Assembly: GCA_934149325.1 (NCBI GenBank)
Contig: CAKPEJ010000001.1
Coordinates: 27,621 to 91,620, forward strand
DNA from: an uncultured Bacilli bacterium
GTDB taxonomy: Bacteria; Bacillota_I; Bacilli_A; RF39; UBA660
Reading direction: 5' to 3'
Length of the DNA: 64,000 nt
Shown here one piece after another: positions 43,787 to 46,207 of the stretch. Under the pieces are notes generated by a model. The model was not told the origin of the DNA, searched no databases, and saw only the letters and a list, made by a program, of their open reading frames with translations. Position 1 is the first letter of the stretch. Each line of letters opens with the position of its first letter. Both the position numbers and the translations under genes were made by a program.

Positions 43787-44743
43787 ATGGGTGAACTTAT
43801 TAATTTTGATAATTTAAAAGAAAATAAAGATTTATTAAAAAAATCTTTTTACAAAGTTAATAGTGAAATAAAAGATTATATTAATGATGAAGATAATGAA
43901 AAAGACGAAGCTTTTTTAAGTTTATATAGTCATTTTCTAACTATATATAATAAAGTAGAAAAAGATTCTTGGATTAAAATAAAAAATGTTAATGATTTTA
44001 TTAATAATGTTGAAAAATATTCAAAAGATGATGATTTATATAATCAATTATCTTTAAAGTTAGAATATATTAATTTAGTCGATGTAACAAATGCAGATGT
44101 ATTAAATGAAGATGAAAAATTTATCATTCCTCTGTTAGATTCAATATGTGAATCTGGTGAAATTGAAGTTGAAGATTATAATTTCTTATATAATAATTTA
44201 AAAAATAAAATATTAAAAGAAATAATTAATAGTAAAACTGATAGAAAAAGCAAAAAAATAGTAATTGAAGATATAATAGATTTAATAGAGGCTGGATACA
44301 ATATCGCCGAAATAAAAAATGTTTTTAATGAAAATAATGTAAAAGAAGAAAAATTAGATTCAATTGATAGTATTCATAGTTATTATTTAAATCAAATTAT
44401 GTTTGTATATGATAATTTTAATAGAAATGGTGATTTAGCTGATGAAATAATAGATAATATAGATATGATTGTTATGCTTAATCATTATAATCAAATAATT
44501 AAAAATAAATTTATTTATATAGTTAACGAATTTGAAAATAAAAATATTAAACTTACTTTAAGACTTAAATTAATATCTGATTTAGTAGAAATATTTTTCT
44601 CATTAGATGATGATTTAAATATGTTTGATTCAGAAACTATAATAAATATGGTAGTTTATAAAAATATAAATACATTAACAGCAGATGAGGCTATAGATTC
44701 ATTTAAAGAATATATGAATGCAAAAGGAGGAATGAAAAAATGA
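43787..44743 (+). CDS. Hypothetical acidic, largely alpha-helical protein inserted between ruvB and queA
   Basis: The 318-aa ORF has a stop overlapping the queA start (ATGA). No motif was recognised. Confidence 0.45.
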
Positions 44744-45762
44744 AAACAAGTGATTTTGACTATTATTTACCAGAAGAATTGATTGCGCAAACTCCATTAA
44801 AAGATAGGGACCATTCAAAGATGCTTGTACTAGATAAAGTAACTGGAGAAATAACACATGATAGATTTGATGATATAGTAAATTATTTAAATAAAGGTGA
44901 TGTTTTAGTTTTAAATAATACAAAAGTTATACCAGCAAGATTAATAGGTGAAAAAGAAGAAACTAAAGCTGTAATAGAGGTTTTAATGCTTAAAGATTTA
45001 GGTAATGATGAATGGGAATGTTTATGTAAACCTGCTAAAAGAGTAAAGGTTGGAACAATTGTTAATTTTGGTAGTGAATTAAAAGTAAAATGTACATTTG
45101 TTGGTGAAGATGGTATAAGACATTTTAAATTTATTTATGATGGTATTTTACTTGAAATATTAGATAGATTAGGTGATATGCCACTTCCTCCTTATATTCA
45201 TGAAAAATTAGAAGATAAAGATAGATATCAAACAATTTACGCAAAAGAGAGTGGAAGTGCAGCTGCTCCAACAGCAGGGCTTCACTTTACTAAAGAGTTG
45301 CTTAAAAAAATAGAGGATAAAGGAATTATAATAAAAGAAATAACTCTTCATGTAGGACTTGGAACTTTTAGACCTGTTTCTGTAGAAGACGTTAATAATC
45401 ATAAAATGCATAGTGAGTTTTATAGAATGAATAAAGATACAGCGGATGTGCTTAATCTTGCAAAAAAAGAGGGAAGAAGAATTATAAGTGTTGGTACAAC
45501 GACAACAAGAACACTTGAAACGATTATGAATTTGTATGATGAATTTAAAGAATGTTCAGGATGGACAGATATATTTATATATCCTGGTTATAAATTTAAA
45601 GCAATAGATGCATTAATAACAAATTTTCATTTACCTAAATCAACTTTAGTAATGCTTGTTAGTGCATTTGCTGGTAAAGAAAAAATAATGAATGCTTATA
45701 AAGAAGCTGTAGAAAACAAATATAGATTTTTCTCGTTTGGAGATTCAATGTTTATAAAATAA
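44740..45762 (+). CDS. queA: S-adenosylmethionine:tRNA ribosyltransferase-isomerase
   Basis: The N-terminus [15 protein letters not shown] is present and QueA-length conservation holds throughout. Confidence 0.93.
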
Positions 45763-45775
45763 AAAATGGTGTTAA

Positions 45776-46207
45776 TTAATTTAACATCATTTTCTTTGTA
45801 AAATCATATTCATCTTTATTTTTATAATAATTAATATATATTTTTTCATATTTTAATAAATTATCATCATAAAAACCAAAACTACTAATAGCCTCAGATT
45901 TAATCTCTTTTAAAATACTGTTTCTTTCGTATATTTGATACATTTCTAAATTTGGATCAATAGAATTAATTAAAATGTAAATAGATTCTTTATCAAGCAT
46001 TCCATCTTTTCTAATTCTATTACTTAAGTGTCTTAATGTATTTACATAATACATACCTTTTTCATCTTTTTTATATTTTTCTTTTATTAGTTCTATATAA
46101 TAATTTAATTTTTCTTCATTTATTTCATTAAAATCAGTCACATTCCTACATAGTGAATAAAAAAGTCTAATAGTTTTTTCTATAAAATATTTTTCATAAT
46201 AATTCAT
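45776..46207 (-). CDS. Hypothetical protein, antisense-oriented between queA and tgt
   Basis: The 143-aa ORF is Tyr- and Lys-rich. No motif was recognised. Confidence 0.4.
   Translation of the reverse strand: MNYYEKYFIEKTIRLFYSLCRNVTDFNEINEEKLNYYIELIKEKYKKDEKGMYYVNTLRHLSNRIRKDGMLDKESIYILINSIDPNLEMYQIYERNSILKEIKSEAISSFGFYDDNLLKYEKIYINYYKNKDEYDFTKKMMLN

Follow-up and report, generated by a model that had tools for sequence, protein, structure and literature searches.

The window analysed here is a stretch of 64,000 nucleotides from an uncultured Bacilli bacterium. Within its ruvAB-queA-tgt block lie two genes that belong to no named family, here called X and Y. X is found between ruvB and queA on the forward strand; Y lies antisense between queA and tgt. 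The features of the block are as follows.

43734-43763, forward strand: promoter-like site for X-queA, ATGATA-18-TATAAT with an extended -10 TG; 10/12 match, in the 60-nt ruvB-X spacer
43773-43778, forward strand: Shine-Dalgarno sequence of X, GAGGTG, 8 nt 5' of the ATG (read from sequence)
43787-44743, forward strand: X, an ORF of 318 aa, founder of an unnamed family always upstream of queA
44724-44743, forward strand: X-queA coupling junction, with the queA Shine-Dalgarno sequence AAGGAGG (44724-44730) within the C-terminal codons of X
44740-45762, forward strand: queA (S-adenosylmethionine:tRNA ribosyltransferase-isomerase), 340 aa; Pfam PF02547, E 9e-142
45763-45793, both strands: candidate bidirectional terminator, an inverted repeat of 13 bp around a 5-nt loop, with a T-run after it on each strand
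45776-46207, reverse strand: Y, an ORF for a 143-aa helical protein, antisense between queA and tgt; member of a second family without a name
46215-46219, reverse strand: Shine-Dalgarno sequence of Y, AGGAG, 7 nt 5' of the ATG (read from sequence)
46231-46258, reverse strand: promoter-like site for Y, TTGATT-16-TATAAT with a TG extension; top-ranked in the scan and divergent from tgt
46297-47412, forward strand: tgt (queuine tRNA-ribosyltransferase); Pfam PF01702, E 3e-162; 371 aa according to gene callers

The first-pass annotation described X as an acidic, helical protein of 318 residues whose stop codon overlaps the start of queA, and Y as a 143-residue ORF on the opposite strand; both descriptions are correct. 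The window's X has a pI of 4.54 and is predicted to adopt an all-alpha fold with 16 helices (AF2 pLDDT 76.9). Its TGA (44741-44743) and the queA ATG (44740-44742) overlap in an ATGA at 44740-44743. The last eight residues of X span the queA Shine-Dalgarno sequence and, in alignment, are specific to the window's allelic type.

Judging from these signals, X and queA appear to form a bicistron which is transcribed from X's own promoter and is translationally coupled. Over 5.6 kb of scanned sequence, the promoter-like site is one of the two best that carry a TG extension; the total number of sites does not exceed chance, so its location is no more than suggestive. At the corresponding place, sister loci have a hairpin resembling a terminator and a TGnTATAAT. 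The candidate terminator is located between the convergent queA and Y and overlaps the last codons of Y. Its folding energy is -11.9 kcal/mol on the forward strand (z -5.3) and -8.8 kcal/mol on the reverse strand (z -3.2); it is not called by the consensus scanner because its stem has few G-C pairs. Y would be an independent antisense unit, sharing this terminator with queA and diverging from the tgt promoter. The tgt gene, which probably starts at 46297, has its own Shine-Dalgarno sequence and a -10 element TGtTATAAT at 46266-46274 (read from sequence). The window is devoid of Rfam elements and tRNAs. The possibility of an alternative genetic code is rejected: X and queA use TGG for tryptophan, and the conserved genes contain no in-frame TGA.

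X and Y are genuine protein-coding genes and found two unnamed, unrelated families (hhalign probability of X-Y homology 0.2%). As noted in the first reading, neither has a recognisable motif. The window's X has no match in Pfam, NCBIfam, PHROGs or PADLOC; among 38 divergent X members no Pfam family is matched by more than two, and all matches are weak. The window's Y has no match in Pfam, NCBIfam or PADLOC, and five Y members give scattered single weak family matches. Against PHROGs, Y has one 25-residue match (E 0.001) to a family of unknown function, which other Y members lack. Nothing consistent is found in these four collections for two further genes, Z and U154. Profile searches of PDB sequences yield no real match (best E 0.089 for X and 0.21 for Y), and the all-helical model of X resembles no solved or viral fold. 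The two halves of X do not represent an internal duplication. Literature searches found nothing relevant.

The X family is small. An exhaustive profile search of 1.84 billion proteins recovers only 61 clusters, none named by any source; X is neither a named nor a widely conserved DUF. Family members are about 290-340 aa long, and this length is kept in more than 35 very divergent full-length types. Across 38 sequences, hydrophobic residues fill 65 of the 66 class-conserved positions, and none of the polar residues is invariant. The hydrophobic core is retained across X types together with a short N-terminal motif, MxxIIxF, which sits on the low-confidence terminus of the model.

Conservation of Y extends far beyond the noise expected of a shadow ORF. 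More than 30 loci have a profile match (hmmsearch, E 1e-27 to 1e-64); the homologs there are 24-37% identical in protein and have identical slot and strand. L79, I80, D84, P85, G111, F112 and E121 are invariant in the family, and the motifs LLIExxDP and GFYD are conserved. GC skew goes negative precisely across Y, and independent assemblies also have Y called as a gene. The pI of Y is 6.6 in the window and 8.3-9.5 outside the window's species. The AF2 model of Y comes from a shallow alignment and is unusable (pLDDT 46.7). A weak Y-like match in locus L017 belongs to the LOG/lysine-decarboxylase family and is therefore a false positive. A search with a concatenated X+Y profile returned only X relatives among the matches listed.

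Both families are confined to a single clade of uncultured gut and rumen Bacilli with very AT-rich DNA, in fixed slots of ruvAB-queA-tgt; the slots are fixed across the clade, so the earlier view that the genes are not random insertions stands. X homologs lie directly upstream of queA in every context read. The two genes overlap or are separated by 9 nt or less in the window, L001, L006, L086, L089, L111, L114, L116, L117 and L128; the sole exception is L113, where a second X paralog lies in between. The tight junction is thus no accident, as had been proposed. The Y family is confined to this block in 22 of 22 metagenome loci, takes the queA-tgt position wherever the contig reaches, and is sometimes duplicated; homologs in L006, L007, L086 and the 22 metagenome loci have the slot and strand seen in the window.

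X is absent from L007, a close relative that retains queA and Y; throughout L007-L013, ruvB-queA is kept without X, with gaps of just 16-146 nt. L111 and L114 have X and lack Y, and X is broken into two ORFs in L105. Copy number also turns over: X paralogs stand in tandem in L113 and Y paralogs in L089-L100, and gene Z is optional. The neighbourhood is plastic, and further cassettes come and go. The premise that ruvA, ruvB, queA and tgt are normally contiguous is only approximately right: in a set of 80 related genomes, ruvB and queA are 150 nt or less apart in 37 of the 45 that have ruvB upstream, and queA and tgt in 21 of 36. In other relatives, unrelated genes (SpoIID, GNAT acetyltransferases, cyclophilin) occupy both junctions.

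In the window's own species, X and Y each have one type among 10 strains, so that the case for allelic diversity has to come from a sister species. Both genes are intact in all 10 strains (πN/πS 0.31 for X and 0.50 for Y), and their πS of 0.013-0.022 is like that of the flanks.

In the sister species, the outer flanks are 96.6-98.6% identical in DNA, and protein identity is 98-100% for RuvB, 97-100% for QueA and 94-100% for Tgt. Between these flanks are at least five allelic types of X, 25-56% identical to one another; identity among the Y types is 37-48%. Several independent samples yielded each type, and the data are assembled contigs. DNA similarity ends 38 nt past the ruvB stop codon and returns at the queA ATG. 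Synonymous divergence of ruvB and queA is highest beside X: pS is 0.037, 0.034, 0.087 and 0.130 in successive quarters of ruvB toward X, and 0.302, 0.245, 0.202 and 0.098 in quarters of queA away from X. Similarity among X alleles fails to follow background divergence. In L089 and L094, X is 83% identical despite a background pS of about 0.13; in L006 and L089 it is 24% identical despite a background pS of 0.03-0.07. Deep alleles, near-identical flanks, a decaying pS peak and an incongruent genealogy, which are features expected of a balanced or diversifying allelic cassette, are present in this species. For X, the flank peak and the incongruence stand out clearly; for Y the signal is weak. 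In the five haplotypes observed, the type of X varies together with the type of Y; recombination does occur between the two genes, as the low pS of queA in its 3' quarter shows. DGR-type mutagenesis is rejected as the source of variation, as the whole gene differs and not one variable region, and neither an RT nor a template repeat is seen in the block.

Selection statistics differ between X and its neighbours. The dN of X (0.30-0.82) exceeds the dS of the flanks (0.03-0.25); relaxed constraint alone is consequently an insufficient explanation. Within types, X has an ω of 0.22-0.31, which is purifying selection. Between types ω is 0.65-0.94; as dS is saturated there and ω is below 1, this is not a direct demonstration of positive selection. 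QueA, RuvB and Tgt have no accelerated protein evolution across X types; ω for queA is 0.035-0.057, and QueA is 98-99% identical.

X and Y are most likely non-enzymatic, all-helical binding proteins, to judge from their sequences. The reading preferred here, tentatively and with a probability of about 0.45, is that these binding proteins are under diversifying selection, that X borrows the expression of queA, and that their role lies in conflict or recognition. Fast sequence change at a fixed position suggests strain-specific conflict or recognition and not queuosine chemistry. The hydrophobic cores of X and Y would be kept while the surfaces diversify, with extreme divergence between species. 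In at least one species, the genes would be old, sharply bounded allelic cassettes which are swapped by recombination in the conserved flanks. Selection would be diversifying or negative frequency-dependent, as in genetic conflict or strain-specific recognition involving, for example, phage or other strains. X would exploit the queA operon for expression and take no part in queuosine chemistry. This reading has to be set against the fact that X and Y have no homology to any conflict system. PADLOC defence models and TA models do not match X, Y, Z, U154 or divergent family members, and PHROGs adds no system. Among 2.9 million viral contigs and 50,697 phage genomes (IMG/VR and INPHARED), no relative of X or Y was found. 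Repeated introgression of a fast-drifting gene could produce the pattern as well. The universal tight coupling of X to queA is also unexplained under a pure hitch-hiking view.

This coupling is an argument for a different role, in which X is a lineage-specific accessory factor (for example a chaperone, adaptor or regulator) of QueA or the queuosine pathway, or of RuvAB, produced at a fixed ratio to QueA through the coupling. The junction is preserved in all types and species read, L113 excepted, though the whole of X is replaced; X is never found apart from queA; and the conserved MxxIIxF on the low-confidence N-terminus could dock on a conserved partner. The first-pass annotation likewise took the coupling to suggest a functional link to tRNA modification or recombination. 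That inference is not supported, and a direct queuosine or recombination role of X and Y, though conceivable, lacks support as well. X belongs to a narrow clade and is absent even from L007; QueA, Tgt and RuvAB do without it in nearly all bacteria, including L007-L013. X has no conserved polar surface or catalytic residue, and QueA does not co-evolve with X type. Alleles of 25% identity within one species are hard to square with a fixed housekeeping interface, and QueA, RuvB and Tgt are 94-100% identical there. A component of the queuosine pathway or of RuvABC should show co-occurrence with the pathway throughout its range, conserved catalytic or binding residues, or co-evolution with its partner, none of which is seen; operon membership and coupling to queA are present, and these are necessary but not sufficient. 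An accessory role for X is unlikely.

It is also rather improbable that X and Y are low-constraint orphan 'filler' genes in near-neutral drift, with the deep alleles of the sister species being neutral imports from related species via flank recombination. Drift would account for the high ω between types, the absence of X from L007 and of Y from L111 and L114, the split X in L105, the plastic neighbourhood with other genes at these junctions in distant relatives, and the lack of homologs beyond the clade. It does not fit the low ω within types or the ORFs kept intact in 10 of 10 strains of the window's species. Nor does it fit the length, hydrophobic core and N-terminal motif maintained in more than 35 divergent types, the recovery of each type from several independent samples, or a dN in X above the synonymous (neutral) divergence of the flanks.

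A more specific scheme, which has a low probability, makes the queA coupling itself functional. X, and perhaps Y, would supply the variable specificity of a conflict or self/non-self system of a kind not yet described, built into the queA-tgt operon. Such a protein might act as a decoy, sensor or inhibitor against factors by which phages or competitors exploit Q-modified tRNAs, 7-deazaguanine metabolism or RuvAB, and its alleles would be maintained by negative frequency-dependent selection.

It is very unlikely that X and Y form an interacting two-component module (toxin-antitoxin or effector-immunity) with co-diversifying specificities. The two proteins have opposite charge outside the window's species (pI about 4.8 for X and 8.3-9.5 for Y), and their types co-vary in the five haplotypes; however, the window's own Y is not basic, and the queA 3' quarter records recombination between the genes. 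The partners of a type II TA or effector-immunity pair are adjacent, co-transcribed and always together. X and Y are on opposite strands with queA between them, apparently in different transcription units; each occurs alone (Y in L007, X in L111 and L114), and no TA or defence model is matched. Finally, there is next to no chance that Y is a shadow ORF, antisense in the AT-rich stretch between queA and tgt. The ORF is short, its region has 20% GC, no database family matches it, and the AF2 model is poor and single-sequence-like. This identity is already refuted, however, by the conservation of invariant residues, slot and strand in more than 30 loci, and Y has its own Shine-Dalgarno sequence, a top-ranked promoter-like site, a terminator hairpin, a GC-skew flip and an ORF that is intact in 10 strains and called in independent assemblies.

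If the conflict or recognition reading holds, the locus is a clean natural case of long-lived allelic diversity within a core housekeeping operon, in an uncultured lineage of the human gut and rumen. Two families without detectable relatives would then mark strain identity and may guide the hunt for the selective agent, be it phage, competitors or host. X could serve for strain typing of these organisms. The locus also illustrates that shared function does not follow from translational coupling to a conserved enzyme gene alone.

X can be compared with several known kinds of gene. SpoIID-domain proteins, GNAT acetyltransferases and cyclophilins usually occupy the same junctions as X and Y in other Bacillota, in the orientation of X; these are named, widely distributed families, and they are unrelated in sequence to X or Y. 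RRNPP receptors such as PrgX (PDB 2awi) are known for allelic specificity classes, and like them X is a cytoplasmic, all-helical protein of about 300 aa. However, the Foldseek comparison of X with PrgX is insignificant (E 6, TM 0.20). A quorum-sensing receptor of this type has an N-terminal HTH or a Rap-type TPR array, and a small pro-peptide gene next to it; none of the 38 X members has an HTH or TPR Pfam match, and the spacers, of 60 nt and 80 nt, leave no room for a cognate peptide ORF.

Lactococcal-type single-gene Abi proteins and orphan defence genes are cytoplasmic, AT-rich compared with their neighbours, motif-less, fast-evolving and strain-variable. X shares all of these properties. 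It differs in having no PADLOC or PHROG match, phage homolog or known phenotype, and in residing in one fixed chromosomal slot in all members of the clade, whereas Abi genes are mobile and vary by presence and absence.

The comQXP locus of B. subtilis, agrBDC of S. aureus, PlcR-PapR and the hsdS of type I R-M systems are allelic pherotype or specificity loci in conserved operons. X has no homology to them and lacks an HTH or TPR, an adjacent small-peptide gene and membrane or kinase parts; its polymorphism is seen in the sister species and is absent from the window's species. Like these loci, X has divergent alleles in one species, sharp borders with near-identical flanks, raised neutral divergence in those flanks, alleles incongruent with their background, and purifying selection within types.

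X and Y, the orphan ORFs that interrupt the ruvAB-queA-tgt block, are real genes of narrow, unnamed families. GC content around the block is ~20-30% and the whole window is strongly AT-rich. RuvA, RuvB, QueA and Tgt are supported by Pfam (E about 1e-9 to 1e-162); X and Y have no match in Pfam or NCBIfam. The ORF listing and promoter-like sites give the following layout.

42149-42700, ruvA (Pfam RuvA)
42719-43726, ruvB (Pfam RuvB)
43734-43763, + strand, promoter-like site with extended -10 TG, directly 5' of X
43787-44743, + strand, X, 318 aa
44740-45762, queA (Pfam QueA)
45776-46207, - strand, Y, 143 aa
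46258-46231, - strand, promoter-like site with extended -10 TG, directly 5' of Y
46288/46297-47412, tgt (Pfam Tgt)

The listing and the sequence bear out the first-pass annotation of two unassigned ORFs, the first overlapping the queA start with its stop (ATGA) and the second antisense. The queA Shine-Dalgarno sequence, AAGGAGG, falls within the last codons of X; GAGGTG sits 8 nt 5' of the X ATG and AGGAG 7 nt ahead of the Y ATG. GC skew goes negative precisely over Y. The tgt start is probably ATG 46297 (371 aa; AAGGA 8 nt upstream) rather than the first ATG, 46288.

The sites preceding X and Y are the two best promoter-like sites with an extended -10 TG; since they are no more numerous overall than in shuffled sequence, it is their position alone that is suggestive. 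An extended -10 motif of tgt, TGtTATAAT (46266-46274), lies back-to-back with the Y site. Convergent queA and Y are separated by a 13-bp hairpin that has a U-run behind it on either strand (-11.9 kcal/mol, z -5.3; -8.8 kcal/mol, z -3.2). In the window, ruvB is followed by only a weak hairpin (z -0.3); at this position the sister loci L001 and L006 have a terminator-like hairpin, then TGnTATAAT. These sites and hairpins suggest that ruvAB, X-queA and tgt are transcribed as three units, and Y as a separate antisense one. Searches of the whole 64-kb window (1-64000) gave no tRNA gene and, at gathering threshold, no Rfam family; it thus has no preQ1 riboswitch.

Both families are small. An indexed protein search with X returned 39 near-identical sequences (90-100%) and one at 28% (P0040); Y returned only two close relatives. 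By its QueA, the window groups with MAGs of uncultured Bacilli from human gut and rumen; the best identity in species-representative genomes is <=84%. When the gaps in related loci were searched, L006 proved to have an X homolog in its ruvB-queA gap, and L006 and L007 to have antisense Y homologs in the queA-tgt gap. Profile searching extended the X family by a 308-aa clade; its member L086 has the window's layout, ruvA-ruvB-X-queA-Y(-)-tgt. Exhaustive HMMER searching of 1.84 billion representatives yielded just 61 clusters of X relatives, with full-length members of 290-340 aa in nearly all cases. Scanning metagenomes with a profile of Y found 22 loci, all 22 in this same gene block; several carry tandem Y pairs and some an additional orphan gene, Z. 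No source names proteins of either family, and neither has relatives in PHROGs, PADLOC or phage genomes.

The tight coupling of X to queA is conserved: X lies directly 5' of queA, overlapping it or within 9 nt, in every context fetched (L001, L006, L086, L089, L111, L114, L116, L117, L128) except L113, where a tandem pair of X paralogs precedes queA (481-2592). We did not expect this of a gene swapped wholesale between strains. L114 (2718-9420) represents a more distant X-bearing lineage in which a thymidine kinase gene separates ruvA from ruvB and queA is followed by Lon instead of tgt; X still adjoins queA there, with a 14-nt overlap.

X is acidic throughout (pI 4.3-6.7, typically about 4.8). 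Its AlphaFold2 model (11-sequence alignment; mean pLDDT 76.9, pTM 0.47) is all-alpha with 16 helices; block-mean pLDDT is mostly 80-95 in the C-terminal part (190-312), in which segment 201-220 is poorly predicted. In 38 divergent members, 66 positions keep their physico-chemical class. Of these, 65 are hydrophobic, and no polar residue is invariant; the best-conserved features are an N-terminal MxxIIxF, W62, LEYIxLxD and TIDxIxxYY. This pattern suggests a retained fold with a surface free to change, and argues against an enzyme. Internal duplication of X was tested and rejected.

Y is unrelated to X, with no homology between the two. It is basic (pI 8.3-9.5; 6.6 in the window's species) and predicted helical; its model (pLDDT 46.7, from three near-identical sequences) is unusable. 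L79, I80, D84, P85, G111, F112 and E121 are invariant and form the motifs LLIExxDP and GFYD. The possibility, raised in the first-pass annotation, that Y is AT-rich shadow-ORF noise is thereby refuted. One ORF, L104 3598-4074, joins a DnaK-like N-terminus (18 residues, not shown) to the C-terminus of a Y-family protein, and very probably reflects chimeric assembly of metagenome reads.

Within the window's own species, sampled as contigs encoding the exact window RuvB (23 read, from 9 distinct places), a single type of 318-aa X and 143-aa Y is present throughout, intact in all 10 strains. Synonymous diversity is 0.022 in X and 0.013 in Y, similar to the flanks; in the nearest other species found, RuvB is 91% identical and X just 36%. 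Here, then, X and Y resemble ordinary lineage-specific genes that diverge fast. Constraint on them is weak: πN/πS is 0.31 for X and 0.50 for Y, compared with 0.25 for queA and <=0.12 for ruvA, ruvB and tgt.

The sister-species loci (L006, L086/L107, L089-L102, L094-L098, L108) are related at the species level, as indicated by outer flanks of 96.6-98.6% DNA identity (93.7% for the left flank of L108) and by RuvB (98-100%), QueA (97-100%) and Tgt (94-100%) protein identity. They carry at least five types of X.

Type A, 307 aa
Type B, 308 aa, 56% identical to A
Type C, 297 aa, 25-28% identical to A and B
Type C', 296 aa, 83% identical to C
Type D, 317 aa, 25-35% identical to the other types

P0040 is probably a sixth type on this background: over 51 residues, the C-terminus of the RuvB encoded on its contig matches that of L006 at 98% identity. 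Y is 37-48% identical between types.

Between L006 and L089, DNA similarity stops 38 nt past the ruvB stop and returns at the queA start codon. Synonymous divergence peaks on X: for this pair, pS is 0.037, 0.034, 0.087 and 0.130 in successive ruvB quarters toward X, and 0.302, 0.245, 0.202 and 0.098 in queA quarters away from it; L006 and L108 give the same picture. Allele similarity does not track background, as X is 83% identical between L089 and L094 (flank pS about 0.13) and 24% identical between L006 and L089 (background pS just 0.03-0.07). X is under purifying selection within a type (ω 0.22, window vs L118; 0.28, L089 vs L094; πN/πS 0.31 among the 10 strains of the window's species). 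Y shows allelic divergence just as clearly, with a weak peak in the flanks. Features of this kind characterise old alleles that are retained or re-imported within a species and shuffled by recombination in conserved flanks. Allelic-cassette behaviour of the window's own X and Y is inferred from these relatives.

Several other presence/absence slots surround the block. L006 has a two-gene cassette between tgt and DUF3792 (8795-10568; a 312-aa orphan and a P-loop kinase of 211 aa that weakly matches AAA_18, AAA_33 and Zeta_toxin) that is missing from the same-species contigs L086 and L089; L086 has a YhcG/DUF1016 gene 5' of ruvA that is absent from L006. Z, which has no family match, occupies the queA-Y gap in L007 (5360-6109), L111 (2105-3268), L090, L102, L108 and L110; it is 249 aa long (387 aa in L111). 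L111 also has a 252-aa orphan 3' of tgt. Copy number turns over: X is doubled in L113 and broken into two ORFs in L105 (1704-2631; pseudogene or sequencing error), and type-C haplotypes L089-L100 have two tandem Y paralogs (about 5420-6405). In the window, capsule/exopolysaccharide regulatory genes identified by Pfam (37979-41593, + strand; LytR-CpsA-Psr, Wzz plus CpsD-type tyrosine kinase, CpsB/CapC phosphatase) adjoin the block upstream. A third orphan gene (41621-42085, + strand, 154 aa; 142 aa from the gene callers' start at 41657) separates the CpsB-like phosphatase gene from ruvA; Pfam, NCBIfam and PADLOC give no match for it, nor does tblastn against 80 related genomes, and its πS of 0.054 is the highest of the block in the window's species.

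Our leading interpretation, at roughly 45% probability, is that both genes encode non-enzymatic binding proteins on which diversifying selection acts, as it does in systems of genetic conflict or strain recognition; X would ride on the queA promoter and ribosome traffic. The first-pass annotation instead took the coupling to suggest a functional link to tRNA modification or recombination, a step that the data do not support. That X is a true accessory factor of QueA or RuvAB is rather unlikely: its coupling to queA is universal and its N-terminal motif conserved, but X is confined to a narrow clade, lacks conserved polar residues and is absent from the close relatives L007-L013, where ruvB and queA are adjacent. 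In QueA, Tgt and RuvB, protein change is also neither accelerated nor correlated with X type (queA ω 0.035-0.057 across sister-species comparisons). Nearly neutral orphan genes with introgressed alleles are just as improbable an explanation; ω of 0.65-0.94 between types, the loss of X in L007 and its split in L105 fit this, but X dN (0.30-0.82) exceeds flanking-gene dS (0.03-0.25), so relaxed constraint by itself is insufficient. It is highly improbable that X and Y are an interacting pair.

This is a genuine finding, and a less ordinary one than 'two hypothetical genes'; the function of X and Y is putative, and the most striking property, the allelic cassettes, is seen in relatives rather than in the window's own species. 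The membership tests run against known systems were all negative. The X and Y protein families are new; allelic cassettes between conserved flanks are an already known kind of phenomenon. In its evolutionary behaviour, the locus may be likened to specificity and pherotype loci such as comQXP, agr, PlcR-PapR and hsdS, and to orphan Abi-type genes.
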